A stretch of DNA of 59,778 nucleotides from a virus (Duplodnaviria > Caudoviricetes): the IMG/VR virus record IMGVR_UViG_3300021197_001267, positions 1 through 59,778 of that record. One strand, given 5' to 3'. Below the pieces are notes generated by a model, which searched no databases, was not told the DNA's origin, and saw nothing but the letters and a program-made list of their open reading frames with translations. Position numbers and translations under genes: made by a program. Below, piece after piece: positions 2,597-27,453 of this stretch (position 1 is the stretch's first letter; each line of letters opens with the position of its first letter).

Positions 2597-2627
2597 TTGG
2601 ATATTCCAGAAATAGTTCCGAACTTTG
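2597..2627 (+). promoter_or_regulatory. putative Bacteroidota housekeeping-sigma promoter (-33/-7) for the recombination/replication block
   Basis: TTG (2597-2599), 20 nt, GAACTTTG (2620-2627, one mismatch to TAnnTTTG). Confidence 0.4.
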
Positions 2628-2645
2628 TAAAACAATTAGAGACCT

Positions 2646-2810: not shown

Positions 2811-2827
2811 ATTCAAACCCCTATAAG

Positions 2828-4847: not shown

Positions 4848-4921
4848 GCCCTTGTAGCTCAGTTGGATAGAGCACCCGCCTTCTAAGCGGGCGGTCACAG
4901 GTTCGAATCCTGTCGGGGGTA
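4848..4921 (+). tRNA. tRNA-Arg (anticodon TCT)
   Basis: Cloverleaf: acceptor GCCCTTG/CGGGGGT, D arm GCTC-AGTTGGATA-GAGC, anticodon arm CCCGC-CTTCTAA-GCGGG, T arm ACAGG-TTCGAAT-CCTGT; CCA not encoded. Confidence 0.93.
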
Positions 4922-4923
4922 CT

Positions 4924-7695: not shown

Positions 7696-7704
7696 ACTGA
7701 CAGC

Positions 7705-8187: not shown

Positions 8188-8380
8188 GATATACTTCTCC
8201 TCCACCTCCGCCATTCAAAGAGATGCCACCGAGCTGTACGAAGAGCTACACACTGAGCTAGGAGAGCCTCATACAAATTGGATTAGAGTTCTTGAGCTAG
8301 TCAAGGAATTCAAAACACGCATGGCTGTCGAACTCGACACCGTGACCACAGCGTGTGACGAATACAACGATACGCCATAA
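8165..8380 (+). CDS. hypothetical protein
   Basis: 71 aa, GTG start, coupled to neighbours. Confidence 0.55.
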   Translation: MKLKTLSEIYFSSTSAIQRDATELYEELHTELGEPHTNWIRVLELVKEFKTRMAVELDTVTTACDEYNDTP

Positions 8381-8922
8381 TGAGTAGCTTTCATAAGGCC
8401 AACAGAGCGGGCAAGGAAGGCGAGCTTATGTGGGAGGACCACCTCAAGAAGGAGGGGCACAAGGTGCTCCGCTCAGATGACGTTAGGGGTGATGTCAACC
8501 TATACTGGGACCTTGAGACAGACTCAGGCATTAGGTACGAAGTCAAGTATGATTTGAGTGCTTACGATTACTACCACAAAAGACCCGACCAAACCTGCCC
8601 CAATCTTTTTATTGAGTGCTGGAGCACGGTAAGGAATGAACCATCAGGGTTGTACTCAAGCCTCGGAGAGGCAGACATCTTCGTGTATATCATGAAGCGT
8701 ACCGACAAAGAGGGAAGACATCTTGGGAACTACGCATATTCTTTTTGGTTGGAGCCATTCCTTGTTTGGGTCGAGACTCAGGATAAGATGAAGGGGTTAA
8801 GAAAAGTCTCTTGTTCCAACAAGGGAGACAATAATGCAAAGGGGTGGCTCGTTGGAGAAGAACTGGTTAACGAAAACAAAATCCACAATGGATACATCAA
8901 CAAAATTGAACTCGGTAAGTGA
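8380..8922 (+). CDS. putative PD-(D/E)XK nuclease-fold protein
   Basis: GKEGE...WDL...YEVKYD...NLFIE...PSGL...ADIFVY pattern. Confidence 0.6.
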   Translation: MSSFHKANRAGKEGELMWEDHLKKEGHKVLRSDDVRGDVNLYWDLETDSGIRYEVKYDLSAYDYYHKRPDQTCPNLFIECWSTVRNEPSGLYSSLGEADIFVYIMKRTDKEGRHLGNYAYSFWLEPFLVWVETQDKMKGLRKVSCSNKGDNNAKGWLVGEELVNENKIHNGYINKIELGK

Positions 8923-11398: not shown

Positions 11399-12396
11399 GA
11401 AAGCTAATTCCTTTTCTGATTCCACTGCTCAGCTTTGGGCAGTGTGACATGGAGATTGTTGGGTTCAACCCCATCTCTACTGACTTAACTATCGCAGTCA
11501 ACGGTGCGCAGTGTGGTGCACCAGCAGACAGCATCGGTGAATTTATCTTGGCCCTTACGTTCAACCCACCCCTAGACGATAATCCTTTCCCTTGTTTCTA
11601 CGATAACGGTTGGGCACTACTCAACTTCCCCTTGGACTTCCCTGGGTTTGAGATAGGTCAAGGTCCTGACAACATCTTACAGGCAGGTGATACCATCACC
11701 TTTAACCTACTTGATACACCATGGGCTGGCAGTGGGGCTGCTCCTTGTTGGATTGACATCTTTCAGAGCGGTTCCTACTACGAGGAATGCTTGGTCATGA
11801 ACGTGTTTCAAATAAATGACAGCGACAACATAACTGGAGAGCCAGGACTTGGAGGATTCCCGTACCCCGACGAAGACATCTTCAACAGCTGGATACAGTG
11901 GTCTCTGAATGGGGCCTGTGACCCACCACCCCCGCCCATTGTGTACGGATGCACTGACATGTTTGCATACAACTACAATGAGTTTGCAACACAGAGTGAT
12001 GGTGGATGTATCTATCAAGGATGCTTAGACCCAGACGCCTTGAACTACTGTGAAGAGTGCACGGTAGAGGGGGAGTGCCTGTACCTTCCTGAAGAAGGTG
12101 AGGACTGCAGCGACCCTCGTGTCTACACCCCAAATACCTTTACTCCTAACGGAGACACTCTTAACGACTACTGGAAGCCAGTGACTCGCAGTGAGTGCTG
12201 GTGGCGGTGGGAGTGCAGGGTCTACAACAGATGGGGTACGCTAGTGTGGGTTAGCTATGACCCTCAGGACAAGTGGCTTGGCAACAGGCTGGGTGCATTT
12301 GTACCTGATGGGGTGTACACCTGGACTATTAAAGCATCTACTTGGGAAAGCCAGAAGGTTATAGAGATGGCTGGAAACGTAACGGTCTTCCGTTAA
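11395..12396 (+). CDS. secreted protein with GCxDxxAxNY repeats and T9SS type B (gliding motility-associated, CHU_C) C-terminal domain
   Basis: Signal peptide ending SFG|Q; GCTDMFAYNY and GCLDPDALNY; PNTFTPNGDTLND, VYNRWG, PDGVYTW, GNVTVFR; ATGA-coupled to the protease. Confidence 0.88.
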   Translation: MRKLIPFLIPLLSFGQCDMEIVGFNPISTDLTIAVNGAQCGAPADSIGEFILALTFNPPLDDNPFPCFYDNGWALLNFPLDFPGFEIGQGPDNILQAGDTITFNLLDTPWAGSGAAPCWIDIFQSGSYYEECLVMNVFQINDSDNITGEPGLGGFPYPDEDIFNSWIQWSLNGACDPPPPPIVYGCTDMFAYNYNEFATQSDGGCIYQGCLDPDALNYCEECTVEGECLYLPEEGEDCSDPRVYTPNTFTPNGDTLNDYWKPVTRSECWWRWECRVYNRWGTLVWVSYDPQDKWLGNRLGAFVPDGVYTWTIKASTWESQKVIEMAGNVTVFR

Positions 12397-13044: not shown

Positions 13045-13481
13045 TTTCTAGATTTCTCTATGGTTCTACCAGCAAAATATGCACCGAAAGAGGTTAGCAT
13101 AAGTATCTCTAACAAAGATACATAACTCGCTTTTACATTAAAGGGCAGATAATCAAGTGAGTCCGCTACCATAGTGCCCATAAACATCACCATCAAAGCA
13201 ATCAAAGTAACTGGCCTGATATACTTGGCCAGCTTTATGTCGCTACCCATGTCCGCCTTCCACCTCTCGGTTACGTTGTTTTGAAACTCTACCTCCGCAT
13301 CAATCTGTGCTTTGATTTCTTCTGCGCTCAGGTCAGGCTCTCTGTCAAGTAGGTTCTTAACTACCCCGAGTCCTCCGCTGTCGGGCAGCAGGTCTCCTAC
13401 TGTGTCAAGAACTCCTGGTGCGGCGGTCCTTAGCCACTGGCCTAGCCTTGTGTCCCTTATCTTTTTTTTCTTCTTCTCCAT
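13041..13481 (-). CDS. putative holin (GTA-3TM-like)
   Basis: VTERWKADM.SD...KYIRP plus two C-terminal TM segments ending YFAGRTIEK; follows the endolysin. Confidence 0.7.
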   Translation of the reverse strand: MEKKKKKIRDTRLGQWLRTAAPGVLDTVGDLLPDSGGLGVVKNLLDREPDLSAEEIKAQIDAEVEFQNNVTERWKADMGSDIKLAKYIRPVTLIALMVMFMGTMVADSLDYLPFNVKASYVSLLEILMLTSFGAYFAGRTIEKSRK

Positions 13482-13941
13482 CGTAATCAATGTATGTGAT
13501 AGTTACTTCCTCACCTTTGTCCAGAGCCTCTGCAATCCTTGGGTACACATCGAAGTAAGCTTGCGTGCTCCTGCCAATAAAGCCATTGCTGCTCTTGACA
13601 TTGGACTCCTGAGTTTCCCCAATGAGAAGGCAACCAGCAGTGTGCTCATCAGTATTCCCACAATGAATAAGTATGTACTCAAAAGAAGGTACGTCAAGAA
13701 CCCAGAGCATGCCTTTGTGAATATCCTGAAAACGATGGGCATACCTGCTGTGAAAGCCGCCCACTGTTCGTAGGCCAACTCGATACGTTCCAGAGGGGAC
13801 ACGAGTTTCGCCATCCACCTTTTCATTTCTTTCCTCATCTTCTAGTGTGTAACACAGGAACTTCCTGCCGTTTGTTGTGTCAAATAAAATGCCTGAGGTC
13901 GAGTCCTCTTGGCTACTGATTCTTAAAACTTCTAGTTTCAT
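13405..13941 (-). CDS. putative endolysin, DUF5675 family
   Basis: CYTLE, TRVPSGTY, ILIHCGNT..HTAGCLLIG. Confidence 0.75.
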   Translation of the reverse strand: MKLEVLRISSQEDSTSGILFDTTNGRKFLCYTLEDEERNEKVDGETRVPSGTYRVGLRTVGGFHSRYAHRFQDIHKGMLWVLDVPSFEYILIHCGNTDEHTAGCLLIGETQESNVKSSNGFIGRSTQAYFDVYPRIAEALDKGEEVTITYIDYDGEEEKKDKGHKARPVAKDRRTRSS

Positions 13942-16900
13942 TCTGTTAGATTGTAGTACATGCTCTCTTCAAGGGTGCCGCTACGCATGCCTGCCATGTA
14001 GATGTCCGCAAGGTTTTTGAACTCCTTGAACTCATCAGCAGACATAGCATTCTTTCTCTTGTTGATGATAGAGAAGTAATCCTTTGCGTCGCCAGCATTC
14101 ATAAAGATACTTCTGATATCTCTAATATGAGTCGAGTATCCATCCATCTTCCTCAAGCTAATTTCAATAGCCGCATCCTTAGCCCCCTTCTTAAATTTAG
14201 AAGCAGCCTTTTCTGCATCGTATGGTGAGTAGTTAAGTTGCTCTTGAAGGATGCGTTGGAATCCCTCTACCCCTGTATCCTCACCTAGAACTTGCATGAG
14301 TTCTTGGTTGTTGGATAGCATAGCCTTGGAAATCATTTCGTAACCAGCAAGCTCTTCTTCTGAGCGCAATGACCGCTCCCTCGGTAGGTCATCCATGCGG
14401 CGAGCGAGGATGTCAATCTCTTTGGATGAGAACCCAGACATCTGCCCCATCGCAAGCATGAACTTCATGGCAAAGAACATATCCATTTGCTCCTTATCCT
14501 CTGGCCTCACAAAGTATTCTCTGCCTGTAGAAGAGTAGACCTTGTTGCCATCTTCCATTAGGTTCTTCAGGGTGTTCCCTGCGTCGGTGACAAACTCCCC
14601 ATATGGCCCCATGCCCACCTTAAGCAAACCACTTGCAGACAACTCGGGGTTGCTGTTGTATGTGGGTATTGTTGCCGAGGTGTTCTTCCAGCGCTCATAC
14701 CTTTCATCATAACTCTCACCCTCCAAGAATCCTGGCACACCATCCATTCCTTCTGAAAGGGGGAATAGCATGTACTTGTTAGTCATCTCTTTTACCACGT
14801 CCTCCAAATAACCAATAGGAGGGAGTGGATTCATGTCTGCTAACACACTGCCAACGATATCCAACAGCTTACTGTCCTTGTACTTTGACTCCTCTTCATC
14901 GTCCTCTACAAATAGGGATGCGATAGCTGGGATTAAGACCTTACCGATAGCGTGGAATGCAGACAGCTCTGCAAGGTGTCCAGCCATAGCAATCGCACCC
15001 TCCCGTCTTGTCTTAGAGTCATCCCGCCTTCCTCGAAGGTCAAGCTTATTGAAGTCAGAGTAGATGCTTCGCTTCTTGTTTACAGCAAATCTTGCAAAAG
15101 GAAGGACAATGTTTCTGACGAAGTCGACTAAAGGCCCCATGGCCCCAGAGGTATCCTTGTAAATATCTGCTGCTTGGCGTGGCGTAGATGCCGCCTGGTC
15201 CTTAGTTACCATAGAGTCTGCATAGCTAAGCGCATCAAGGTCTGGTCGAGCTGCTTGCTCATCCCAGTTAATGTCGTCAAAGCTATCAGCCAGTCCCTCC
15301 GAGAGGAGGTAGTCTCCATAGAATGTAAACCACGACGCTACGGCAGCCACTTTGTCAGTAGACTTTAGGTTCTGTAGTGATAGGTCTTGAAGTTTGTCTC
15401 TTGTCCTAACAAACCAGCTAGTCTCTGTATCAATAGAACCAGTGTATGGGTCAATGTTTCCCGCTTCATAATCTCTAGAAAAAACTGGGGAGTTCTGAAG
15501 TAGCTTGTACCTTCCGTTTGCTTCAAGGGCAAGCTTAGAGTCAGTGAGCAATCCGTTCCTTAAAGCAAATGCGAAGAGCTCACCTACAGTTTGAATCATA
15601 TACGGGATAGACTGAACGGGATTCTTCGTGTTGGCCATCGTACTGATGAGCACGGTACTTTGCTTGAGTGTCTGAGTAAGTACACCGCCAAAGGCCTTCA
15701 CGATTACGGCGTTCTTAATTGTTTTAATAGGGTTTCTAAAAGTCTTACCCCCATACGTAAACCTAGCCTGAAAAACAGGAGGCGCACTTGCAGAATCTTG
15801 CGTGATGTAGTTCATCAACTTTGTGTGCAGCTGATTCTTTGTGCCGTCATCAGGAATGAGCTTGGCTAACTCCTCGCTTGAGAATACAGATTGAAGAGAC
15901 ATCACCTCACCCACAGTGTTTGATAGAATAGTATTTTCTCTGAGCGTTCGCTCGTTAATACTAGTAAAGTTGAGACCAAGGATATTCCCCGTGCCAGTAA
16001 TGCTCTTTGGGTTTCTCTCAAATGAGGAGCCTGCTGTTTTCTTAGCATTAGAAAGCGAGCTACTACGCATGCTGTCCATAATGGCCTGCCTCATCTGCAA
16101 TCCCTCATCAACAGCTTCGTTCTTTACCTTCACCTTAACGCTGAATGGCGTGTAGTTATTCTCTCTCGTGAGGTTCTTCCCGAGGTATCGCTCAACATAG
16201 TTCGCAAACGAATCTTCAAGCGTAGAGTGTACCCCAGCCATGAAGTCAACCATCTGAACAAGGTCAGGTCTTTCTGTCTGCACCTTGGCCAGTAGGTCTG
16301 GCAGGTTCTTCTCTGAGAACAGATACTCAAACGCTGCCTCCATCTCAGCTAAATCTTTGTCTGAGTAAATTTCACGCTGCTCCCTGTAGTGGTCGATACT
16401 GCGCCGCGTTGCATCTCTTAATGCGAGATACCACTCTGCCTCGTTTTGACCAGGTGCTCCCTCTTCAAGGACGGGCATCTGCCTAGCCATGGAGAACAGC
16501 TGCATAATAGCGTTATCCAATACTGTCTTGACACTCCCGCCCTCACCCTCAATACGGTCTATCTCCTCTGTTATGGCTTCGGCGGTCATGGCGTGAATCA
16601 TATCAGCCTTCGCAAAGGCTCTCTCCATGTCAGCAAATCCAATCAACCTTCGGATTTTTGAAATCGTTTTGTTGTCCGTCTTAAAGACCAACCTCAGGAA
16701 GGAGTCAGCTGTATCGAGTAGGGAAAGGATAGGCCTGCTCCCCGCACTTACACCCTTGTTAGTAAGCTGTTCTTCAATGCCCTTGGCCAACTCGATTCGA
16801 CCTCGCACGCGAGCAGCTAGATAACCCAGCCCCATGACTGAGTCGTTCATCAAGTAATCGTCAAGCTTAAACTCTAGGTTCGCTAGGTGAATCTTGTCAA

Positions 16901-19900
16901 GCTTCATCAGCCTATTGATTAGGTCCGAAGCATTGAATTGGTCAAGGCTATACACACCAAGAATCTCAGCAATATGACTGTCTTCAAGAAGCTTCTCTAG
17001 GTTGAAGGCAATCTGCGGCAGCAAAGCATCTCTTATGATTGCATCCTTAGACTGCTCCTCCAGGAGCGCTTTGTTCTCAGCGAGTTGCTCCAGCACATAC
17101 TCTACGTCAGCAGGGTTAGCGGGGTCAAGAGACAGCTCAGGGTTGTCTTCGATGAAGCTAAGGATAGCTCTCCTGGTGGCGCTAACTTTGCGAAGCTTTG
17201 CCGCCTTAACAAGTGCTTCGTATTCGTTCTCAAAAGAAGTTCCGTTCTTCTCGGCAGCCGCCTTAGCCTTAGCCACCATCACCGCGTTACGTCCTATCTC
17301 TTCGAGGGCTATGAACTTATCGGCAAGAGACATGAGGGCTTCGACTGACCTCCTCGCAGGCACCTGAGCCACTACCCTCTCTTCCTCTTTACTGAATACT
17401 GTCTTCACCTTTGACACAGAACTCACGGCGGAGTTGAGTGTGTTGATGAAGTCCTGTATATCCGTGGGCGACAGCAGAGATGCGTTGATTCCAGACAGTC
17501 TCCTTAGTACCCTGTCGTAGGAAGCAACAGACTTAAGCGCCTCTCCCTTCTTGCGCTTCTTGGCTGCACCTCTTAGTCTCTTTTGGAGCTTGCGTGCCGC
17601 ACTAATAGAAGCCAAGTAGTTTCTCATGGCTTCTTTGGCATCCTGCTTATCGAAGATATCAATCAGCTTCTCAACAAACGTATCCATAACCTCGGCCTCC
17701 CCCTCCTTCTGAATCCTCTTGGCAGAAGACTTGTGTGCTTGCCTAACAATCTTAAGGAGTCTCTGAATGTCCTTGTTGCCAAAGGGCTGCTGACCCCTGC
17801 CCTTCATCCTTTCATCCACAAGCTTGATAGCAAAGGACAAGAACTCCTCTACGGTTTTAGACTTGTTCTTAAGCTGGTCGAGTTCTTTCTTAAGAGCCTT
17901 GGCCTCTGTGCTAAGCTCTCTGTTTCTTTTACCGAGGGTCTCCTGAGCCTCCCTGCTTGCCATCTTTTTTCCTGCAGTTCGCCCCTCCTTGTAAGCCTTG
18001 GCATTGGCATACATCGCCTCTGCGTTTTCTTTGCTCATGCCACTTGCAATAAGTAGCTCCATCACCTCCTTCTTTTTTCTGTTCCATAGCTCGCTTTTAG
18101 AGGGCGTAATAATAAGCTTTCCACGCTTAGTCACACGCGCTCCTGGAGTAGGAGTTGAAGGGTCAACCATGTCGGCTATGAGCTTCATCAAGTTACCCTG
18201 AGCCTTACCTCTATTGATAATTGACTCAGACTTGTCCATCGCCAAAACGTCTCTAGTGATAGTGTCAATAGGGACGGGTGTCTTAACAGTCATCCTACCC
18301 CACGTAGCCTGACCCATCCCCCCCATCATTTCAAAGGCGTTAGGAGTTATGAGTTTGCGCTCCCCCTTGCTGTTGGTGTACATGTCACCTATCTCTAGAC
18401 CACGGTTTACTGGGTTGGTACCCCTGGTAACAAGCGTGCCAGGAGCAGAGCGCATAGCCTTAAAGACAATAGTCTTTGGTGTCGGAGCGTTGGGGTCTAC
18501 ATTGACTAGCTTAAGTGGGTATGAGGCTGTTGGGTTGGGGTCTTTCTCAAGCCTAACCTCAGATGAAACCTCGATAGCACCATATATATTATTAACCTCC
18601 CCCCCCTGAAGAATCTTCTCTTGAAAGAAGTCATAGAAAAAGTTCTTAAGAGTAGAACCAAATTGACTTGCCTTAGGTCTAAACCCAAAGATTCTTTCGT
18701 AGGATTCTATGAGTCTTTTCTTTTCTGCAGCACTGTCCTTGGACTTTACAGCTACTGCCTTCCCCAGGTTTGTTGCAAACTTATCTACAAACTCACGTCT
18801 CTGCTCGAACGTAGACCTATATGGGGATGCGAACTCTACGAAGAAACGCTCGAACAAATCCTCCATTTTGCCAGCCATAGAGCTGAGCTTATTTGTCCCC
18901 TTCTTGAGTGGGTTTGGCTCCTTGCCATCCTTTACCCTAGCCTCGTTTCTTTTTATCTGAGTAGTAATAGACAGTCTCTCAGTCTCGGCGACAGTATCCT
19001 TGAGCACCTTCTTGAGCTCCGTCTTGGTCAGTACATTCTGATTGACAAGCTCAAAGCCAAGGGAAGCCATAGACATCACACCATTGGTGGAGCTTTTGTG
19101 CTTCTCCCTTCCCCCGCTGATGAGTAGGAGGTAGGCCTTGCCGTCGGGTGAAGTCTTGAGCAGTTCATTAAGTTCATTGGCCATGTTGTTACCAGCGCTC
19201 TCGCCAGCCACAGCCCACACGTCACCTGTATTGGCAGAATAGAACAGCCCGCCTCCATTATTCACCAGCACTCTGTCGTCAACAGACACCGAGCCAACCA
19301 TCATGTTGTCTGGTGAGTGCGAGAGGACAGGTCTTCCCTCCAATATAGACATATCTTCTTGACGGACCACCCCCGACTTGAGCCAGTCCTCCATCTGTGT
19401 GGTGCTTGCTGCGTAGTTCAGGTCAAAGATTCCAATCTTCTGTGGCTTAACCAAAGACACTGGGTCTCCAACAAGAGCGCCTGGGCGCTGGAACTTAATC
19501 TTCTGTCCACTCACCCTACTCTTAGCCTCAAAGCGAGGGTCAGACGCAGAGACTTTAACAGCATCCTTGGCGAGCACAAGCGCTCCCACTTGAATAATCT
19601 CAGAGGCCTCAGCTAGTGGTCGGCCATCACGCTTGTCATAGAACCAGCTGTGGCGGAACGGATTCATCCCCACCTGTACCCATCCCTCCATCTTGCCCAG
19701 CTCCTTGTAGTCAGAGTTGTACTCGCTACCCTTCATGATGTCGACAGCACGCTGTCTCACCTGCTCGGGTGACTCGTTCTTGAAGTCACCAAACATTCTC
19801 GCAATAGTCTGCTTGCCCTTACCCCTTGCAATGTTGAGGGCGGCCATTGGCGTGGAGTCAAAGGTCGCGTTCGTAATCACCGCTGTCTGTCCATACCCTA

Positions 19901-22900
19901 CAGCCTTGCCGCCAAGGAACGGTGCCCTTGCTTCAGCTCTCTTGCCTTGGTGCACTGAGACAACCCACGTGTCGTAGGTGTCGTATGCTGGGATGTCTAG
20001 TCTCAACCCAACGTAGTACCCGTCAGCAATCTCTTTGTTAACTCCAATGATACCCTTGGCTACCTTGTCAGAGGTTAGCGCCGATGCCACGTCCATTACT
20101 GTTGGGACCTCAGGCACTTCTTCAAAAGGCTTGATAGGCATGTTCTCCCGAACAGCTGACACATAATCCTCTTGAGTAATTTCTCCGAGCTCGTACTTAT
20201 TAAGGACATTGAGCACTACAGAGTTACGTGTTTGTCTTTGAGACTCGGGCAACTTCATCTCCGCTCTACGTTCCTCCATCTGCTGAGCATTGATACCTGC
20301 AGCCTGCTCAAAAGAAACCTCTGCGTTTTCTGATAGCGAGAGGTCGGGCAGGGCTTGAGCCTTAGGCTTTCTTGCTCTTGCTGCCGTGGCATCGTATGCC
20401 ACCATGTAGTCATCAAACCTTTGACCCTCTCCTTTGGCGCCTTCACCTTTGACAAAGAACACTACATCTGGCTCGTCGAGCAACGGTGAGTTCTCTGCAT
20501 CCCAACCATCTGGTGCAAACTCCCTGTTAAATGCTGTGCGTGCATAGGGTTTGTACCCCAACCCAATGTAGATATCCTCTAGCTTGGTGGCAAAAGCATC
20601 GAAGAAAATCTCAACACCGTTCTCTGCAGCCCATGCTTCCATGCGCTTGAACAAAGGTTTTGTAATCCGCTTAAATCTTGTGTCTGGATTCTTGAAGATG
20701 CCACCTACGTAACCGTCCTTGGTGATGTATCCACCAGCACCGTAGTCTGCTGTCATGAAGATTTCCCCTCCGTCGTCGATGATTTGTTGTACATCGGATT
20801 CTGAAAGCTGAGTCACTTGCAAACCAATGTTAATGCCACGCTCCTCCATCATCTTCATCGCTCGGTCCATAGACCTGGCAAAATAGTTTACCCCCTGAGG
20901 GTCAGAGGCCGTGATGATGTCTCTGTCTGCTGCGTCTGCTGTTGGTCTGATAGGCTCTGACTTCTGCCTTGTCGCCTCTCCGCTATACTCACCCTCGTGC
21001 ACGTAAGTTTCCTCATACGTCCACCCTCTCTCCCGCTCCATGAACTTGATGAAGTTGTTGAGGTGACGCTCGTTCTTGAATACCCTCTTCACTGGGTGCT
21101 TGGCCTTACCACTAAGGCTTACGCTGAACACGACGGTTGCAAATATCTCCCCGCCCTCTGCCTCCATAGCCTGCGCCTTGGCTTCGTCGAAGCCATCCTC
21201 TGCTTCGTCATCCATCATAACTCCAGCACGCATAGCAATGCCTGCATAGTTGGCTCGGATAACAGCTTCGTTCAGCTTTCTCTGTCCCTCAAGCCTACGA
21301 CCTTCAGAGAACTCTTGAGTCATCTGTTGGATGGCGGACACGACGTTGTCAATCTTTGCGTCAGGAATACCCTTGACTCCAATGCGTCCTAGGTGTGGGG
21401 CGAGGAACTCCATGAACTGCCTGACCACACTCTTCTGGATGTCGATAGATACGTTGCCTGCGGTGATGTCAGCAAGAAGTTCTGTAAGGAACTCGTCAGC
21501 AACCTGCACCTTGTCCTGTTCTGTCAGAGATTTGTCATCAAGTGAGGACGTGAGGTTGCCTCGGCCGTCTCCGTAACTTGTTAAGAACTGTGAATACCTC
21601 TTAGCCAGGTTGTCAGGCAGAGCCTGGAACAACTTCTTCGCCAACCCAACAGCAGCCTTGGTCCCGATGGTCTGCAGCACGAAGTCATGATACCCCTCGT
21701 GATATGCTGTTGTCTCAAGCAAGCCTGGCAAGAACATCTTAATCTGACCCGACCCAGTCCACATCCCACGTCCCGCAGCCTCGATAGCCTCCTCCCTCGT
21801 GAGGCCAGCATCCTGCATGAGGTCTTCGATGTAAGTATCGTAGTCTCGATACATGTCAACAGCCACGTCACCCAAAGAGGACAAGCCCTTGACTACGTTA
21901 ACAGCGTTTTGCATGCCCCTCACGATGCGTTCGCCAGTAGTTACTGCCTTGGTCTTACCCTCTCCATCCACAACGGTGTGGGGTGAGACATCGTACTTGG
22001 TCAATCCTTGAATGATTTGAGCAATAGGACCTAGGTTGTCTGCCGTTACAGTAACCTTGCCCCTTCCCTCTGCAAACAGTCCGCCATAGTTGCGTCTCTT
22101 CTTGCCAGCTTTCCGTCCCTCTCTAGCCAAGATGCGGGACTCAAGCTTACCGTCTGTCTGAAGCATAGAGTCCATCTCTCCCTCAATGTTACCGCGCTCG
22201 GCCATAAGCTCCCGAACCTCCTTGGTAATCTTTCGTCTTGTATCAGAGTCCGCACGCGTGTACTGTTCTGCAAGAACCTCCGCTCTATTGTGGATATCCA
22301 CGAGTCTTTGGTAAGTCTCTGGCTTAGTCTCTGCCAGATACTCCATAACCTGTTGTCTTCTATCCGACAGCTTGGTGTAGGCATCGACAGCGTCAATAAT
22401 CCTGCGGCCAATCGTGGCTCTTTCTCTTTTAGATTCTGCCTGAGAGAATTGACCCTTAAGCTCTTCAATCTTAGCCATGGTTCTGATTAACCCAAGACTT
22501 TTGCTCGCAACGGTCCTGGCCACTGTACCTGCAGGTGAAAGCGTCCCACCCATAGCAATACCTGCCAGCGCTCCTTCTTTTGTCTGAGCCCAGAAGTCAT
22601 CATACTTCCACTCTACCGCCTCGCCACCAGCACGCATGGCGTTAATTCTAGATGTGTACTGCCACCCTGCAGTAACCCCCTCAGTAATCCCCTCTTCAAC
22701 AGCGCCAAGGCCAGCGCCCATAAGAAGGCCTGTTGTCCAGCTCTTTAAGGTTTGCTCACCAGCATCGGTCATTAAAGACTTGATGATGGCACCTCCAACA
22801 CTTTTACCAGCAAAAATCTGTGCTCCCACTGCGGCAGGAAGACCTTCTGCGATACCGCTACTCGTTACAAACCCAAGCTTCTGTGCGTCATTTAAGTTTT

Positions 22901-24182
22901 GAAACCATTCGGTGTCTCTGTTCTCCGAGTAGACTGAAGCACCACCGAGTATAGATGTGACAGAACCTACGGCTCGGGGGTTGCCTCTTGATACAGCACC
23001 TGTAACCATAGCGGCGCCCATTAGGGGAAGGGATGCACCAAGCATGCCTAGGCCGTCACTCATGAATCCTGGAATGTCAAGGTCAAGGAGCTTTTCCTCA
23101 AGGCCTTTGCTGGAAACAGCCATATCCTTACCAATATCCCTGATGCTCTGCTGCCGTGCAGCCTGGTCTTCATCATTGCCGCCAAGAGCGTTCTCTACTG
23201 GAGTTGCAATACCATCCCACATCCTCAATGTTGCCTGCCTAAATCCAGGGGCGAAAACATCTGTTACTCCAAGCCATCCCTGACCCGACTCGTTGACGTA
23301 ACCCTCCCCCGTTAGGTCCGTAGAGATATCATAATTTCTGTATAGATTCTGCTCGATAGACCTACGCTCATCAAGAGAAAGGTCCCTACCCATTTGTGAT
23401 TTGAACTTAGCGCTTGCGGTAGGCTCAATCTGTTGGTTGATGTAGGAGAAAGCTTCGTTTCCAGCCCGCTCCTTTTCCATCCTTACAACCTCGTCTTTGA
23501 ATTGACGGGCTTGACCCTCATAATCTAGGCTCTCGTCTACCTCAAAGTTGGGCGCAAAAAATCCTCTGTCTCTTCCAGAATACAAACGACCAGCGTCAAA
23601 TCCCTTAAGTGATTCGTAATCGTTTTGAGGAGTATCATTAAATCCTTTTGATAGCTCAATGTAACCCTCGTTTACGTCGTCATTCATCAAAGAGCCAATA
23701 CCATCAATGACAGATTGGCGCTCTAACTCTAGCTGTTCTGAGGAAAGACTATCTAGTCTAGATGCGTCAGCCTGCATACCGCTAGACTGATAGTACTTAG
23801 ACAGGTCAAAGTTTTGATTGATGTAATCCATCCGTTCAGACTCGTAAGCCTGCCCGTAATTGTACACCAACTGCGCATCAGCCCCAGGGATTTGCTGTCC
23901 CCCGAAGTCATACGTCTGGTATGGGTCAAATGTTACTGGCGTAGAAGCCGAAGCTCCACTGTCGTCCTCGTCCTGCTGAGCTGGAGTCGCCAACCCTGAA
24001 GAAGAATCCGTAAAATCCACCTCCGAAACTGGCTCCAAGGCTGAAGTTTCGTCTTTTTTTTTTGGGTCCTCGACTGGCTGTGCCGCTTGGTACCCATCAA
24101 TCATTGCTTGCAGCTCGGCTTTTGAGGCGCCAGCCTCTGCAGCCGCGTAGTAGCGTGCAAGGAACTGCTCTTTTGTCTCCAT
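13938..24182 (-). CDS. giant (3414 aa) internal virion/ejection polyvalent protein with zincin (HExxH) and GNAT-like domains
   Basis: After two other ejection-type genes; Gly/Ala-rich hydrophobic segment; AYHEGYH then ADEFLTE; FDAF...Y...GY..YAR..FN.EFAP.GWD...PDVVF; long helical C-terminus. Confidence 0.8.
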   Translation of the reverse strand: METKEQFLARYYAAAEAGASKAELQAMIDGYQAAQPVEDPKKKDETSALEPVSEVDFTDSSSGLATPAQQDEDDSGASASTPVTFDPYQTYDFGGQQIPGADAQLVYNYGQAYESERMDYINQNFDLSKYYQSSGMQADASRLDSLSSEQLELERQSVIDGIGSLMNDDVNEGYIELSKGFNDTPQNDYESLKGFDAGRLYSGRDRGFFAPNFEVDESLDYEGQARQFKDEVVRMEKERAGNEAFSYINQQIEPTASAKFKSQMGRDLSLDERRSIEQNLYRNYDISTDLTGEGYVNESGQGWLGVTDVFAPGFRQATLRMWDGIATPVENALGGNDEDQAARQQSIRDIGKDMAVSSKGLEEKLLDLDIPGFMSDGLGMLGASLPLMGAAMVTGAVSRGNPRAVGSVTSILGGASVYSENRDTEWFQNLNDAQKLGFVTSSGIAEGLPAAVGAQIFAGKSVGGAIIKSLMTDAGEQTLKSWTTGLLMGAGLGAVEEGITEGVTAGWQYTSRINAMRAGGEAVEWKYDDFWAQTKEGALAGIAMGGTLSPAGTVARTVASKSLGLIRTMAKIEELKGQFSQAESKRERATIGRRIIDAVDAYTKLSDRRQQVMEYLAETKPETYQRLVDIHNRAEVLAEQYTRADSDTRRKITKEVRELMAERGNIEGEMDSMLQTDGKLESRILAREGRKAGKKRRNYGGLFAEGRGKVTVTADNLGPIAQIIQGLTKYDVSPHTVVDGEGKTKAVTTGERIVRGMQNAVNVVKGLSSLGDVAVDMYRDYDTYIEDLMQDAGLTREEAIEAAGRGMWTGSGQIKMFLPGLLETTAYHEGYHDFVLQTIGTKAAVGLAKKLFQALPDNLAKRYSQFLTSYGDGRGNLTSSLDDKSLTEQDKVQVADEFLTELLADITAGNVSIDIQKSVVRQFMEFLAPHLGRIGVKGIPDAKIDNVVSAIQQMTQEFSEGRRLEGQRKLNEAVIRANYAGIAMRAGVMMDDEAEDGFDEAKAQAMEAEGGEIFATVVFSVSLSGKAKHPVKRVFKNERHLNNFIKFMERERGWTYEETYVHEGEYSGEATRQKSEPIRPTADAADRDIITASDPQGVNYFARSMDRAMKMMEERGINIGLQVTQLSESDVQQIIDDGGEIFMTADYGAGGYITKDGYVGGIFKNPDTRFKRITKPLFKRMEAWAAENGVEIFFDAFATKLEDIYIGLGYKPYARTAFNREFAPDGWDAENSPLLDEPDVVFFVKGEGAKGEGQRFDDYMVAYDATAARARKPKAQALPDLSLSENAEVSFEQAAGINAQQMEERRAEMKLPESQRQTRNSVVLNVLNKYELGEITQEDYVSAVRENMPIKPFEEVPEVPTVMDVASALTSDKVAKGIIGVNKEIADGYYVGLRLDIPAYDTYDTWVVSVHQGKRAEARAPFLGGKAVGYGQTAVITNATFDSTPMAALNIARGKGKQTIARMFGDFKNESPEQVRQRAVDIMKGSEYNSDYKELGKMEGWVQVGMNPFRHSWFYDKRDGRPLAEASEIIQVGALVLAKDAVKVSASDPRFEAKSRVSGQKIKFQRPGALVGDPVSLVKPQKIGIFDLNYAASTTQMEDWLKSGVVRQEDMSILEGRPVLSHSPDNMMVGSVSVDDRVLVNNGGGLFYSANTGDVWAVAGESAGNNMANELNELLKTSPDGKAYLLLISGGREKHKSSTNGVMSMASLGFELVNQNVLTKTELKKVLKDTVAETERLSITTQIKRNEARVKDGKEPNPLKKGTNKLSSMAGKMEDLFERFFVEFASPYRSTFEQRREFVDKFATNLGKAVAVKSKDSAAEKKRLIESYERIFGFRPKASQFGSTLKNFFYDFFQEKILQGGEVNNIYGAIEVSSEVRLEKDPNPTASYPLKLVNVDPNAPTPKTIVFKAMRSAPGTLVTRGTNPVNRGLEIGDMYTNSKGERKLITPNAFEMMGGMGQATWGRMTVKTPVPIDTITRDVLAMDKSESIINRGKAQGNLMKLIADMVDPSTPTPGARVTKRGKLIITPSKSELWNRKKKEVMELLIASGMSKENAEAMYANAKAYKEGRTAGKKMASREAQETLGKRNRELSTEAKALKKELDQLKNKSKTVEEFLSFAIKLVDERMKGRGQQPFGNKDIQRLLKIVRQAHKSSAKRIQKEGEAEVMDTFVEKLIDIFDKQDAKEAMRNYLASISAARKLQKRLRGAAKKRKKGEALKSVASYDRVLRRLSGINASLLSPTDIQDFINTLNSAVSSVSKVKTVFSKEEERVVAQVPARRSVEALMSLADKFIALEEIGRNAVMVAKAKAAAEKNGTSFENEYEALVKAAKLRKVSATRRAILSFIEDNPELSLDPANPADVEYVLEQLAENKALLEEQSKDAIIRDALLPQIAFNLEKLLEDSHIAEILGVYSLDQFNASDLINRLMKLDKIHLANLEFKLDDYLMNDSVMGLGYLAARVRGRIELAKGIEEQLTNKGVSAGSRPILSLLDTADSFLRLVFKTDNKTISKIRRLIGFADMERAFAKADMIHAMTAEAITEEIDRIEGEGGSVKTVLDNAIMQLFSMARQMPVLEEGAPGQNEAEWYLALRDATRRSIDHYREQREIYSDKDLAEMEAAFEYLFSEKNLPDLLAKVQTERPDLVQMVDFMAGVHSTLEDSFANYVERYLGKNLTRENNYTPFSVKVKVKNEAVDEGLQMRQAIMDSMRSSSLSNAKKTAGSSFERNPKSITGTGNILGLNFTSINERTLRENTILSNTVGEVMSLQSVFSSEELAKLIPDDGTKNQLHTKLMNYITQDSASAPPVFQARFTYGGKTFRNPIKTIKNAVIVKAFGGVLTQTLKQSTVLISTMANTKNPVQSIPYMIQTVGELFAFALRNGLLTDSKLALEANGRYKLLQNSPVFSRDYEAGNIDPYTGSIDTETSWFVRTRDKLQDLSLQNLKSTDKVAAVASWFTFYGDYLLSEGLADSFDDINWDEQAARPDLDALSYADSMVTKDQAASTPRQAADIYKDTSGAMGPLVDFVRNIVLPFARFAVNKKRSIYSDFNKLDLRGRRDDSKTRREGAIAMAGHLAELSAFHAIGKVLIPAIASLFVEDDEEESKYKDSKLLDIVGSVLADMNPLPPIGYLEDVVKEMTNKYMLFPLSEGMDGVPGFLEGESYDERYERWKNTSATIPTYNSNPELSASGLLKVGMGPYGEFVTDAGNTLKNLMEDGNKVYSSTGREYFVRPEDKEQMDMFFAMKFMLAMGQMSGFSSKEIDILARRMDDLPRERSLRSEEELAGYEMISKAMLSNNQELMQVLGEDTGVEGFQRILQEQLNYSPYDAEKAASKFKKGAKDAAIEISLRKMDGYSTHIRDIRSIFMNAGDAKDYFSIINKRKNAMSADEFKEFKNLADIYMAGMRSGTLEESMYYNLTE

Positions 24183-24202: not shown

Positions 24203-25978
24203 TTACTGCAGGCCCTCTGGCAGCATCTCAGCTGCTTGCTGCCTTGCTTGGAGCTGAGTCAACACGTCCTGGTCTATGCCAGTTTGATTCAACCCAGCCT
24301 CGTACAATCCCTGACTGTGGCCAAGAATCTTAGCTGGTACAAATCGCAGCCTCTCTGCAATCTTGGCGTCGTTCACAACGGATTGACTAATTGACCTAAA
24401 CGCTGGGTCTTGCGCGGAAATTGTTTTGTCCCTAAATCTTGCAAAGAAGGCCCTTACTCTAGCCTCATCATCTTCTGTGTTTGCACTCTCAAGGGCCGCT
24501 GTAACCACGTCATTAGGAACCATAGTTCTGTATCCAACAACATCACCGCCAGCATCGTACAGGATGTCAGTCACATTGACTCTTCCCGAACCATCTGGGA
24601 TGTCAACCCTTACGTTTTCCCTCGGTGGCAAAGAGACGGAGTAACCCCCCTCTCTTTCACTTACAGCATACGTAGCTCCAAGAGCCTCGTTCACGGAAGC
24701 CTCCTGCTCAGCCTCAGCTTCGGCCTGTGCATTGGCCCTGTTCTGATTGAGTCTTGCAATAGTATCACGCTGGTCAACAGGCTCCATACGTCCCGCGATA
24801 CCCTGAGCCATCGACTCATAGTACCCCCCAACAGCTGTGCGCCACTGCTTCATGGCTCTCTTCTGCTCACTGTTCATTGTAGGGATGGCATCAATCTGAC
24901 CTTCCGAAACATTAAAAACAAACTCACCGTTTTCATTGAGTCTGCCTGAAGAGATTGACTCCCTGTTGATGGCTGTATTTACCAACCGCTGGTCGTAGGT
25001 TGAAAGCGCTGCCTGCTGGTCAGCCTCCGTCATGTAATCCTTGCCTGGATTGTCTCTCTTCCACTGCTCAAAAGCCATCTGACGATACATCTGAGGGTTG
25101 GTCCTAACCCTGTCTGAGATAGCGTCTGTAATGTCCCCGTATAGAGGCTCAGACTCCAGCTCTCCAAGCCCCAGTCCTTCGCTATTCAACTTTGTGTAAG
25201 CCTTTTTCTTGGCGTTAAACGTCTCGTCAAACAAAGTCTTACTGAAAGTGGGTGAAGAGAACGCTGTTTCCTCTGCCTTGATAGAGGGAACGTACACGTC
25301 ATCTAGGCTGCCCCATCTCGTACTTCTCCAGTCAGTGAGACCTGCAGGAGAAACCTCCATAGGCATACCGTTCTCATCTACCCCCTGTCTTGCGGGCGTA
25401 ACGACACTAAGCTTTCCGTCCTCACCCATAACCCACTCAGGAGCCTGGCTGTAATCATCCCACTGCTGCTCCGCAAGAGCCACACCACCTGCCAGATTCT
25501 TAATCTTGCCCCCTCTAACATTAGTAATTGTTTGAGAGTTCATGGCAAACTTAGCAGTAGAGATGTTCTTTAGCTGTTCGTACTGAGCCTTGGACTGCTG
25601 AAATGACTGCAGGTTTTCCGATGTAGGTTCAAGCTTGTGCTGAGTAGATGCACGTTGAAATTCGTCAAGAGCCATCTGTAGACCCTCTACGGCCCACCCC
25701 CCGACACCCGTGGGTGCAGCTTCAGAAGCGTTCTTGGTGTAGCCATACAGCTGTTCGTTGTACCTGTCCTCCGAACGCTGGTCCATTGAGGCTTGACGCT
25801 CGTCCTGCCTTGCCTGACGCTCTTCTGACCTAGCGTACCTAGCCTGCTGCTCGCTGTATCTCTGCTGCTCTCGGGCCCTATCTGCAGCCTGCCTTCTCTG
25901 CTGCACGATGCGGTCAACATCACCCTGGATTTGCTGTCCAATTTCTCTTGCGTAGTCTGACGCGAACTTATACTCCAT
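24203..25978 (-). CDS. putative internal virion (ejection) protein
   Basis: 591 aa, Q/R/E-rich helical N-terminus, located between pilot-like and giant genes. Confidence 0.65.
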   Translation of the reverse strand: MEYKFASDYAREIGQQIQGDVDRIVQQRRQAADRAREQQRYSEQQARYARSEERQARQDERQASMDQRSEDRYNEQLYGYTKNASEAAPTGVGGWAVEGLQMALDEFQRASTQHKLEPTSENLQSFQQSKAQYEQLKNISTAKFAMNSQTITNVRGGKIKNLAGGVALAEQQWDDYSQAPEWVMGEDGKLSVVTPARQGVDENGMPMEVSPAGLTDWRSTRWGSLDDVYVPSIKAEETAFSSPTFSKTLFDETFNAKKKAYTKLNSEGLGLGELESEPLYGDITDAISDRVRTNPQMYRQMAFEQWKRDNPGKDYMTEADQQAALSTYDQRLVNTAINRESISSGRLNENGEFVFNVSEGQIDAIPTMNSEQKRAMKQWRTAVGGYYESMAQGIAGRMEPVDQRDTIARLNQNRANAQAEAEAEQEASVNEALGATYAVSEREGGYSVSLPPRENVRVDIPDGSGRVNVTDILYDAGGDVVGYRTMVPNDVVTAALESANTEDDEARVRAFFARFRDKTISAQDPAFRSISQSVVNDAKIAERLRFVPAKILGHSQGLYEAGLNQTGIDQDVLTQLQARQQAAEMLPEGLQ

Positions 25979-25980
25979 GG

Positions 25981-27453
25981 TTATGCGAATTGTGGTTCAT
26001 CGAGAAGGCCATCCATGAATTTCATGAGGGCATCTTTATCGCCTGCTTCCACTAGTTTTTTAATAGATGATGCTTGGTCTGGGTTGAGTACATACTCACC
26101 TCCAGTAACTCTGACGCCAGTGTCTTCACCCTCTTCTGTGATGACAGCCATTTCGTTTTCGTCGTGAGAGAACTTACCTGGAGTCTTCTGTACTTTACCA
26201 CCCTTTTCCATAGGCACTGGAGCGGCGGAGACGGGATTCAAAACACCCATTCCAATCTTAGCTACGCCCCCGACAGTCGAAGCGATACCAGCCATCCTTT
26301 GTTGTCTTGCCATTGCCTCTGCCTGCTCTGCTTGGTCTAGCTGATTCTGAGCGTATGTAGTCTCTCTTGTGTTCCTAGCCTCCTTAAGACCAATACTTCT
26401 TTCCTGAGCTCCAGCCAAGTCACCAAGAGCTGCTGTCTGCAACTGCTGCTGCTGCAGAACCTCTTGCCTTTGAGCTCTGTTAGCCTGCTGTGTGGCACCT
26501 GCTAAAGCACCTAGCCCTCTAGAACCAAATGAAGTAGCTGCTGCTGTTGTATTCGCAAGGTTCTTGTTGATGTCTTCCGTTCTCATCTGCATGAGTCTAG
26601 CATCATAAGCACCCTTTACTCTCTCGTAGTACTCTGCGGGAGTAGACAGAGATGGTTGAGACGCCTTAAGCCTGTCAATCTCAGCTTGTTGCTTGCGCTG
26701 GTCTGACTGAGCAGACTTGATAGCTCTACCTCCTTGAACAATGTCTGTGATACCACCAGCCACACCCATGACTCCGCCTGCAATCATGCCTGCAGACTCT
26801 AGGTTTAGCTTACCTGCCGCTCCACCTGCACCTGCGCCTGCACCTGCGCCTGCGCCTCCACCTGCACCTGCGCCTGCACCCGCGCTTTTTGTAGATAAGC
26901 TGCTGGGGTCAAACGCAAGAGGAATGTCAGCTTCTTCAGCCATGTCAAAATCCTCAATGCCTGGCAAACTTCTAAACTCCTGAGGGAAATTAGAACTAGT
27001 TGGGCCATCTGGGAAGCTAAGAGGGATGTCTGCCTCTGGTGCATTACCAAAGGACTGCACATTGAACAGGGGATTCTCGCTAGTAAGTGAGATATCCGCC
27101 TCGGGAGCTGGGTCAAAGGGCTGCATACCCGCGAGACCTGGAACAAAGTTACCCGTTCCTGTCGTGTTAAATCCTCCCGTGTAATCTGTTGCCCCTCCTA
27201 GACCGTAAGCCTGCCCAGGAAGTCCCTGCATCTCAAAGTCGTTTTGATTCCCTGCAGAAATTCCCGTGATAGGAATTTGCATAGTAGGCATAAGGCCACG
27301 TGTGGTGGGCCCTCCAACCGCGATTGGTCCTGGCTGAATGCCTGGATACTGCCCAGTAAATGCTCCCGCAGCATTGCGCCTACCGTCCCCCATAGTTGAG
27401 GCAGTCGCTGTCCCTATACGGATAGGGTTTCCAAACTCGTCGTACTCAAACAT
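25981..27453 (-). CDS. putative DNA pilot / ejection protein
   Basis: Gly-zipper hydrophobic segments (AGMIAGGVMGVAGG; GIASTVGGVAKIGMG) around a Q-rich coiled coil; low-complexity N-terminus. Confidence 0.65.
   Translation of the reverse strand: MFEYDEFGNPIRIGTATASTMGDGRRNAAGAFTGQYPGIQPGPIAVGGPTTRGLMPTMQIPITGISAGNQNDFEMQGLPGQAYGLGGATDYTGGFNTTGTGNFVPGLAGMQPFDPAPEADISLTSENPLFNVQSFGNAPEADIPLSFPDGPTSSNFPQEFRSLPGIEDFDMAEEADIPLAFDPSSLSTKSAGAGAGAGGGAGAGAGAGAGGAAGKLNLESAGMIAGGVMGVAGGITDIVQGGRAIKSAQSDQRKQQAEIDRLKASQPSLSTPAEYYERVKGAYDARLMQMRTEDINKNLANTTAAATSFGSRGLGALAGATQQANRAQRQEVLQQQQLQTAALGDLAGAQERSIGLKEARNTRETTYAQNQLDQAEQAEAMARQQRMAGIASTVGGVAKIGMGVLNPVSAAPVPMEKGGKVQKTPGKFSHDENEMAVITEEGEDTGVRVTGGEYVLNPDQASSIKKLVEAGDKDALMKFMDGLLDEPQFA
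26821..26885. repeat. in-frame tandem repeat encoding an Ala-Gly linker
   Basis: CCTGC(A/G) hexamers with a 36 nt higher-order duplication (26821-26856, 26857-26880). Confidence 0.85.

Follow-up and report, generated by a model that had tools for sequence, protein, structure and literature searches.

The subject of this analysis is a giant gene (13938-24182, minus strand; 3414 amino acids, aa), the last large gene of the late operon of a phage, where it follows a muzzle-like gene. The phage sequence, IMG/VR record IMGVR_UViG_3300021197_001267, was examined in its entirety as a single contig of 59,778 bases, hereafter called the window. The giant protein carries a Lys-x-Gln (K-x-Q) motif at the borders of its modules; the two outer residues are conserved in relatives, and whole cassettes have been exchanged at these sites. 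This junction motif is very likely to be genuine and to have a function at the protein level, and K-x-Q is probably a cleavage site. As an overall explanation we tentatively favour a polyvalent ejection protein, i.e. one chain of several unrelated domains, in which the K-x-Q motifs of the border linkers would be read by an endopeptidase, most probably the zincin-like HExxH domain built into the same chain.

Modules and Lys-x-Gln sites of the giant protein

A first-pass annotation, made from this single sequence, had placed HEGYH, three KAQ and one KFQ in the giant protein, the latter four at apparent domain borders, and had found no other KAQ in the 3414 aa. All five motifs lie exactly where they had been placed, and there is no further KAQ and likewise no further KFQ. 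One junction (site 4, KPQ), 16 aa from site 3, had been overlooked, as had the KDQ of the C-terminal chassis (aa 2994-2996). The modules and sites, from the N- to the C-terminus, are the following:

21171..24182, minus strand: N-terminal chassis (aa 1-1004), retained in relatives, whose BLASTP blocks stop at aa 1000-1008
22989-23054, minus strand: hydrophobic Gly/Ala-rich segment in the N-terminal chassis (aa 377-398; hydropathy scan)
21303..22145, minus strand: HExxH (zincin-like) domain (aa ~680-960)
21687-21701, minus strand: HEGYH (aa 828-832)
21468-21500, minus strand: conserved helix ADEFLTELLAD (aa 895-905)
21171-21179, minus strand: junction site 1, K1002-A-Q1004 (aa 1002-1004)
20934..21170, minus strand: small alpha/beta domain (aa 1005-1083; secondary-structure elements 54-104 of the structure model)
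20364..20933, minus strand: GNAT-fold acetyltransferase-like cassette (aa 1084-1273)
20355-20363, minus strand: junction site 2, K1274-A-Q1276 (aa 1274-1276)
19497..20354, minus strand: cassette 3 (aa 1277-1562), a helical part and a beta-rich, highly conserved domain (RLDIPAY...NPFRHSWFYD)
19488-19496, minus strand: junction site 3, K1563-F-Q1565 (aa 1563-1565)
19449-19487, minus strand: 13-aa spacer between sites 3 and 4
19440-19448, minus strand: junction site 4, K1579-P-Q1581 (aa 1579-1581)
18207..19439, minus strand: cassette 4 (aa 1582-1992; SPDNM...GGLFY...), modelled as alpha/beta, helical bundle and beta parts
18198-18206, minus strand: junction site 5, K1993-A-Q1995 (aa 1993-1995), directly before the C-terminal chassis
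13941..18197, minus strand: C-terminal chassis (aa 1996-3414), conserved in relatives
15195-15203, minus strand: KDQ (aa 2994-2996) in the C-terminal chassis
14901-14975, minus strand: hydrophobic segment in the C-terminal chassis (aa 3070-3094; hydropathy scan)

Within this one sequence, the recurrence of the motif is not above chance. The three KAQ compare with 0.92 expected, and at least three were reached in 5.6% of 2000 shuffles (p = 0.056); K-x-Q as a whole occurs 15 times vs. 9.5 expected, and unrelated tripeptides (STP, FKN, VRQ and others) occur four times each vs. about 0.5 expected. The significance of the motif therefore comes from the relatives.

Conservation in homologues

A search with aa 780-2000 as query gave 60 proteins at E ≤ 0.001 among 2,564 scored candidates. 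These homologues measure 1.9-4.2k aa, mostly 3.2-3.9k aa, and lie on contigs of about 55-62 kb. The aligned set comprises P0001-P0053; the eight others of 61 (P0054-P0061), which share only cassette 3 and have another domain order, were omitted. An unbiased scan of the whole 53-sequence alignment for columns with [KR]-x-Q in at least 70% of rows retained only six, five of which are at module borders. At Q1004 (site 1), [KR]-x-Q is present in 45 of the 47 occupied rows, at Q1276 (site 2) in 52/52 and at Q1581 (site 4) in 45/53, where 27 rows have KAQ and the query reads KPQ; at Q1565 (site 3), all 53 rows have K/R-F-Q, and at Q1995 (site 5), all 53 have K-x-Q. The sixth column, KDQ at Q2996 (51/51 rows), is uninformative because the C-terminal chassis is strongly conserved all around it (SYADSMVTKDQAASTPRQAAD). 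This KDQ could be a sixth site or merely part of the fold.

For the island tests, 32 of the 53 sequences were kept, after 21 near-duplicates and fragments had been dropped. At the first five sites, K and Q form conserved islands in stretches of 20-50% column identity. A two-column island scan yielded 20 islands in the whole protein, sites 2 and 5 among them, and K-x-Q was the sole residue pair recurring at three places. The residue between K and Q differs among sequences (A, S, F, P, Y, L, K, R), as do the flanks, and the residues after the Gln are not conserved either (A, G, R, H, K, D). The motif that had been read from one sequence is thus retained in homologues down to about 30% identity, with its flanks scrambled. 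In the P0024-P0047 group, there are also paired sites, 10 aa apart.

Concerning the underlying codons, six combinations were found at site 3 among 37 matches in the window and related loci, and 12 at site 5 among 31 matches; the site 2 pattern was too loose (91 places matched) and was not used. Since the codons at the sites vary synonymously, selection acts on the peptide and not on the DNA. A DNA-level signal, such as a recombination joint, was rejected as the cause of the motif on the same grounds.

Outside the giant gene, K[AF]Q occurs three times in the genome, once in a 591-aa protein and twice in the portal. The 591-aa family has no conserved [KR]xQ column in 14 sequences, and its K[AF]Q is not conserved. 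As for the portal, KAQ is kept in none of six relatives at either place, and K/R-x-Q in 0/6 at aa 285 and in 2/6 at aa 681, where the surroundings are rich in Gln. The idea of a head protease acting in trans on many substrates thus finds no support in the portal and the 591-aa protein, neither of which retains K-x-Q. Two [KR]xQ columns are half-conserved in the 490-aa family (10/15), one of them in a K-V-Q-K-T-P-G context. The latter resembles K-F-Q-R-P-G at site 3, and the 490-aa protein is a possible second substrate.

An independent set of giant proteins

To obtain a second set, 1.84 billion representatives were searched by phmmer, the query being the HExxH region (aa 680-1010). Only 31 proteins (clusters) were found at E ≤ 0.001, nearly all of 2.6-4.0k aa; five were already in the first set, and three short ones (92-306 aa) of the 26 new proteins were dropped, which left 23. 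In these 23 proteins, KAQ ranks first of the 4,977 tripeptides with an expectation above 3 (59 vs. 21.3; z = 8.2), with HEG and HEA behind it, and the permuted controls QAK (20), AKQ (21) and KQA (19) stay at the same expectation of 21.3. Furthermore, a BLASTP homology breakpoint is found no more than 12 aa away from 43 of the 59 KAQ sites, vs. 16.2 ± 3.5 for random sites, and none of 1000 randomisations reached 43.

Cassette 3 is present in only three of the 23 proteins and is therefore not what the motif follows. For this reason, cassette 3 was also rejected as a hidden protease, a candidate raised by its invariant Asp, Ser and His and by the sites on both its sides. Six giant proteins whose HExxH was not retrieved by this search (P0054, P0056-P0059 and Elemovirus gp18) hold together seven KAQ vs. 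7.5 expected.

Exchange of cassettes at the sites

BLASTP blocks of the relatives against the giant protein end at recurring points: aa 1000-1008, 1083-1101, ~1290, 1565/1566 and 1993. Homology to distant giant proteins ends at aa 1565/1566 (site 3); in P0050-P0053 and P0055, it resumes exactly at aa 1993 (site 5), and the gaps at cassette 4 run between aa 1565-1584 and 1935-1993. Five large events were recorded in the central region:

181-183 aa insertion at site 1, in four relatives: K(T/S/P)Q upstream, KAQ downstream
Small domain lost (aa 1010-1085), in 26 of the 52 relatives aligned: site 1 on the N-terminal side, no motif on the C-terminal side
Small domain and GNAT lost or replaced, in P0050-P0053: the K/R-F-Q of these relatives stands at site 2 in the alignment
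A region with DUF7178 in place of cassette 4, in P0048-P0053: between sites 3/4 and site 5
Nested 169-aa insertion inside cassette 3, in P0030: N-terminal side without motif, KSQ 14 aa before its end

In four of these events, one or both borders coincide with a site; in the fifth, neither does. This agrees with the earlier suggestion that the cassettes may be swapped between relatives. No association with the motif was seen for the large indels of the N-terminal chassis (aa 40-402).

The inserts at site 1 were found in P0003, P0013, P0017 and P0021 (about 183 aa, at query aa 1000-1004). They contain the strings R-S-T-G...G-F-Y-F-F-S and Y-G-T-V-I-Y, which we take to be reminiscent of ADP-ribosyltransferases; Pfam gave no match on P0003. 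In P0059 (4197 aa), cassette 3 is flanked on both sides by QFS(Q/K)AAPR (residues 2324-2333 and 2597-2606) and not by K-x-Q, and the context of HExxH differs as well (HEGIHP).

Structure model and identity of the modules

An AlphaFold2 model was made of aa 960-2010 (1051 residues) from 32 aligned sequences, with a mean predicted local distance difference test (pLDDT) score of 75.1. Its segments with pLDDT < 50 are residues 1-35, 41-48, 113-119, 313-318, 607-613, 988-1002 and 1011-1051, and sites 1-5 correspond to model residues 43-45, 315-317, 604-606, 620-622 and 1034-1036. Site 1 is thus within the low-confidence segment 41-48 and site 2 within 313-318, site 3 abuts 607-613, and site 4 stands where a low-confidence stretch gives way to the beginning of the next confident domain. 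Site 5 is in the low-confidence tail, its placement in a linker being less certain because the cut end of the model is near. The motifs are accordingly at module borders, in or adjoining predicted disordered linkers, and the model supports the earlier view that the segments between them are separate globular units.

The GNAT-like domain proposed from the sequence was confirmed as a GNAT fold by structure search with the model. In VIA-align, model residues 123-314 matched 5isv_A with Z 12.7 and a root-mean-square deviation (rmsd) of 4.2 over 147 aligned residues, and all 50 matches listed were GNAT-type acetyltransferases (Z 12.7 to 10.3); Foldseek gave a best E of 1.3e-3, with probability 1.0 and a template-modelling (TM, target) score of 0.45-0.68. 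At the sequence level, no Pfam GNAT family was found at E ≤ 0.1 for the giant protein, phmmer against PDB gave a weak match to 8heh_A (E 0.17), and tblastn matched the GNAT region to the C-terminus of a Microbacterium phage 'minor capsid protein'.

Cassette 3 scored 13.7 bits against Pfam PF25735 (Phage_L5_gp82), below the cut-off of 27, and over the aligned domain its homologues in P0056 and P0054 reached 29.8 and 26.6 bits, respectively. These profile scores suggest that cassette 3 is akin to Phage_L5_gp82, its own score being below the cut-off. It is the module common to the most distant giant proteins and to gp54 of Roseobacter phage CRP-9; an Atlas search with it gave no usable match. For the small domain and for cassettes 3 and 4, no fold match was obtained; with the whole 1051-residue model, the PDB lists were filled by GNAT. 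Against predicted viral structures (BFVD), the same model had 32 matches at E ≤ 0.001 to large multidomain phage proteins, with names such as ART-PolyVal-like, zeta toxin, PcfJ-like, tail lysozyme and 'large polyvalent protein associated'. An Atlas feature search with the C-terminal chassis led to viral hypothetical clusters, one of them with LPD39 on 55% of its members, which is a lead only.

PHROGs, Pfam and NCBIfam searches with the whole giant protein returned no significant family, and phmmer and profile searches against PDB sequences gave nothing below E 0.04. By tblastn, aa 668-1995 had cassette-level matches in six records of deposited phages, none of them to the HExxH region. As a single polypeptide with several unrelated domains (the GNAT fold, the L5-gp82-like domain and at least two further units), the giant protein corresponds to the definition of a polyvalent protein.

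The HExxH domain

H828, E829, H832, E897, E901 and D905 are invariant in 32 full-length sequences; His is scarce in the giant protein (22 of its 3414 residues). In a trimmed 18-row alignment, which includes a 92-aa fragment, the HExxH residues are invariant, and at least 90% of the rows retain E897 and E901. Among 14 more distant homologues, 13 have exactly one HExxH and the fourteenth is a fragment. E897, E901 and D905 lie 65-73 residues downstream of HExxH. In a model of the domain (pLDDT 69), two strands come just before the HExxH helix and the Glu residues are on helix 209-228, which is, as modelled, the order of elements expected of a gluzincin.

With an HExxH helix and a later Glu helix, the domain qualifies as a zincin at the level of motifs only. 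The zincin motif named by the first-pass annotation therefore stands as far as invariance, motif and predicted topology are concerned, whereas neither a match to MPTase-PolyVal nor a clear zincin fold match accompanies it. From sequence comparisons, the domain appears to be a small family of its own (31 clusters) and not a detectable member of PF18818 MPTase-PolyVal. The whole-domain VIA-align rows were within background: PPEP-2 (Z 4.9, rmsd 4.5, 144 aligned), anthrax lethal factor (Z 4.7, rmsd 6.2-6.6, 179-183 aligned) and residues 2124-2357 of N4 gp50 (Z 4.1, rmsd 7.0, 178 aligned).

Proposed mechanism and alternative explanations

The giant protein would consist of an N-terminal chassis ending in the HExxH...EEFLxELLxD domain, a variable middle of three cassettes (the small domain with GNAT, the L5-gp82-like domain and a 410-aa module) and a C-terminal chassis. 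Zincin specificity is typically S1'-driven. The built-in peptidase might bind the extended linker and read the Lys and the Gln two positions apart, cutting its own chain or neighbouring copies, in the capsid or after ejection. The cut could fall after the Gln (a P3-x-P1 form, like A-X-E in SPN3US), after the Lys or before the Gln. The expected products would be aa 1-1004, 1005-1276 (small domain and GNAT), 1277-1565 (cassette 3), a 16-residue spacer, 1582-1995 (cassette 4) and 1996-3414. The freed cassettes would then act as separate effectors, and the hydrophobic segments of both chassis parts (aa 377-398 and 3070-3094) may aid passage through the envelope. The chain would be made late, packed with the DNA and carried by the virion, as suggested by its position in the operon, its absence of Cys, the annotation of its Elemovirus counterpart as 'structural protein' and the detection of a polyvalent protein, gp47 of phi24B, in virions, according to passages of a preprint (10.64898/2026.04.10.717836). 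Because the tag travels with each cassette, any module between two tags would be released automatically. That the built-in HExxH domain is the cutter is put forward here as a tentative proposal.

Several observations weigh against this mechanism. The scissile bond is not readable from the alignment, since both the middle residue and those after the Gln vary. The HExxH domain had no match in Pfam (E ≤ 0.1), PHROGs or NCBIfam; in hhalign, its 18-sequence profile aligned with the ArdC-type MPTase of the same genome at a probability of 1.7% and over the Glu helix only; and in fold searches of its model against PDB nothing exceeded background, the best Foldseek E being 0.17. KFQ may, in the model, be the last strand of cassette 3, and the C-terminal chassis may have KAQG(N/D)L as its conserved start. 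Two borders, that between the small domain and GNAT and the N-terminal side of the 169-aa insertion of P0030, have no motif. P0060 and P0061 are rich in KAQ (five each vs. about 0.8 expected) and their HExxH domain was not retrieved by phmmer, so the link between motif and zincin family is imperfect and suggestive only. Finally, having been selected through the zincin domain, the independent set does not separate this domain from the rest of the chassis.

It is extremely improbable that the motif reflects chance, or a shared ancestry of linkers without function. The single sequence, with three KAQ vs. 0.9 expected (p = 0.056) and other tripeptides recurring as often, would be compatible with this, but the motif is kept at 30-45% identity where flanks are scrambled, its codons vary synonymously, and the first rank of KAQ among 4,977 tripeptides, with permuted controls at expectation, and the breakpoint enrichment (0/1000 randomisations) of the independent set already contradict it. 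A functional motif could instead be a junction tag that is never cut: a docking motif for the portal, capsid interior, chaperone or ejection channel, a hinge signal, or an isopeptide cross-link pair, with cassettes exchanged at linkers simply since linkers tolerate breaks. All the evidence on the motif is indeed conservation and position, not chemistry, and Lys and Gln are the residues joined by transglutaminase-type bonds, for which such a pair would be suited. Moreover, N4 vRNAP, ArdC and TraC1 carry zincin domains and are transferred uncut according to passages of PMC5512222, which also counts against the preferred mechanism. On the other hand, three residues with a free middle and free flanks are short for docking and typical of the sub-site recognition of a protease on an extended chain, the closely spaced pairs of sites (16 aa here, 10 aa in P0024-P0047) suit the trimming of a spacer better, and cross-linked proteins would be hard to thread through a tail. 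An uncut tag is regarded as unlikely.

Somewhat less probable again is that K-x-Q is cut by another enzyme, be it an unrecognised prohead-type protease, another phage peptidase or a host protease, and that the HExxH domain does something else, e.g. attacks host proteins or the cell wall during entry. In its P3-x-P1 form, the motif matches the sites of head-maturation proteases. The T4 head protease follows the rule L/I-x-E. In SPN3US, the prohead protease gp245 cuts after A-X-E, according to the passages of PMC10052503 on these sites. The HExxH domain is, in addition, not placeable in any protease family; two further metallopeptidase genes are present (M43, 9512-11398; ArdC-N with MPTase-PolyVal, 58219-59115), the region from the portal to the capsid gene contains several genes without annotation, and the metallopeptidase of the phi24B polyvalent protein gp47 has been suggested, in the relevant part of the preprint 10.64898/2026.04.10.717836, to act on peptidoglycan. 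Against another enzyme, no prohead protease was found by Pfam or PHROGs in 31 and 20 scanned open reading frames (ORFs), respectively, several ORFs being without annotation; head proteases usually cut several head proteins, whereas in the comparison with the portal and the 591-aa protein, conserved K-x-Q sites are confined to the giant protein; and the KAQ excess follows the proteins that share the HExxH domain, 20 of the 23 being without cassette 3. Processing by the built-in zincin-like domain is retained as the preferred, if tentative, reading.

Phage genome and late operon

From the annotation of the window ORFs, the genome is that of a phage with its late operon, which includes virion structural proteins, on one strand. 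The neighbours of the giant gene considered here are:

48024-50135: large terminase, late operon
45530-47974: portal, late operon
27463-32877: 1804-aa muzzle-like protein with a crAss muzzle C-terminal domain
24203..27453, minus strand: two genes upstream of the giant gene (591 aa and 490 aa), syntenic with it in relatives
25981-27453, minus strand: 490-aa protein
13405-13941, minus strand: DUF5675 gene, sharing 4 nt with the stop of the giant gene; synteny kept in the related loci whose downstream flank was retrieved

The muzzle C-terminal domain (PF25729) of the 1804-aa neighbour scored 27.9 bits vs. a cut-off of 27 (E 3.2e-6). The phage appears to be a podovirus of about 60 kb with a crAss-type muzzle, the muzzle domain being a feature of this neighbouring gene and not of the giant gene. 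Its portal is 28-31% identical to those of Flavobacterium Elemovirus and of Cellulophaga, Tenacibaculum and Maribacter podoviruses; a megablast search with 4 kb against deposited phages gave no match. The host is probably a member of the Bacteroidota, as suggested by a BT4734-like primase domain and by two ORFs with type IX secretion sorting signals encoded in the genome.

Cysteine is absent from the giant, 591-aa and 490-aa proteins, and four to nine cysteines each are present in the muzzle-like, capsid-like, portal and terminase proteins. It is possible that the 591-aa and 490-aa proteins are co-ejected. A Cys-free trio would fit proteins that need to pass unfolded through tail and periplasm.

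Among the other genes, a 298-aa product (58219-59115, plus strand) combines an ArdC N-terminal domain with an MPTase-PolyVal zincin (Pfam E 6e-31 and 4e-32, respectively) and is a classic anti-restriction-type protein encoded separately from the giant protein. An M43 (pappalysin-type) metallopeptidase of 628 aa (9512-11398, plus strand), the C-terminus of which resembles a type IX secretion sorting tail, is overlapped by 37 nt by a 344-aa ORF (11362-12396, plus strand) whose start resembles a signal peptide and which carries a CHU_C type IX sorting domain; both are host-like secreted proteins within a phage genome. A tRNA-Arg (TCT) is located at 4848-4922 (plus strand) and an Erf and PDDEXK (DUF3799) recombination pair at 2774-4227 (plus strand). 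A related 71.5-kb record (G004 of L022) has two portal homologues (6109-8556 and 62914-65262), 71% and 61% identical to the portal of the window, which could reflect a chimeric assembly or a real duplication.

Comparison with known systems

The genome plan of Elemovirus (NC_055854.1) is the same: the large terminase and portal are followed by structural genes, by a product of about 1470 aa in the muzzle position and by a giant last gene, gp18 (48851-59935; 3694 aa), annotated as 'structural protein'. The portals are 28% identical, and gp18 has one HExxH and weak homology to cassette 4. Unlike the giant protein, gp18 shows no KAQ excess (1 vs. 1.2 expected), and its HExxH is in a different context. 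It was for its lack of a KAQ excess that gp18 was rejected as a cultured model of the K-x-Q dialect; its junction tags, if any, are of another kind. On a wider scale, it is conceivable, though more speculative than the mechanism proposed for this one protein, that tailed dsDNA phages use a true polyprotein strategy, in which private zincin-like proteases would read a three-residue code and co-evolve with it as lineage 'dialects'; the QFS(Q/K)AAPR flanks of P0059 are cited as an example of another such dialect.

RNA-virus polyproteins contain an embedded protease, e.g. of the 3C type with Q/G sites. They share with the giant protein a single translation product, an embedded protease, short Gln-containing junction motifs and separate enzymes, whose release is here a proposal. 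The giant protein differs from them in belonging to a dsDNA phage, in having a metalloprotease-like and not a chymotrypsin-like domain and no cysteine, and in being without homology to them.

The head-maturation sites of SPN3US, as described in parts of PMC10052503, resemble K-x-Q in being a three-residue motif of P3-x-P1 type with a free middle, repeated in ejected proteins that are packed in the head. By contrast, those sites are proven by mass spectrometry, and the enzyme that cuts them is a separate, assemblin-like protease with many head proteins as substrates; no gene for such a protease was found in the ORFs scanned here. The SPN3US cuts mostly remove N-terminal propeptides, whereas the present sites separate whole domains of one protein.

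The closest parallel is that of the polyvalent proteins, defined by Iyer, Burroughs, Anand, de Souza and Aravind in 2017, with a zincin-like MPTase as a hub domain, according to passages of PMC5512222. Autoproteolytic release of their domains by zincins was predicted there, and the relevant passages name no cleavage-site motif. Full-text term searching of the literature, which is not proof of absence, likewise retrieved no published junction or cleavage motif for such proteins. As they do, the giant protein strings together unrelated enzyme domains and embeds an HExxH domain; its relatives carry Kinase-PolyVal, RadC, DUF3293 and DUF7178 domains, and its BFVD matches include proteins of polyvalent type. 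It differs from them in an HExxH domain that is outside PF18818 and occurs almost only in proteins of 2.6-4.0k aa. If the proposed processing is true, the functional products actually encoded by giant 'hypothetical' phage genes could be recognised, the correct size of injected effectors, e.g. the GNAT enzyme, would be available for their expression, the motif could serve to locate cassette borders in metagenomic phages, and the automatic release of modules would explain the free shuffling of anti-defence and takeover enzymes in giant proteins. While processing of polyvalent proteins by their own peptidases has been predicted since 2017 without known sites, the giant protein described here provides candidate sites exact to the residue and statistically supported, together with a candidate protease domain with obvious knock-out residues (H828, E829 and H832) and about 30 sequence clusters for testing.

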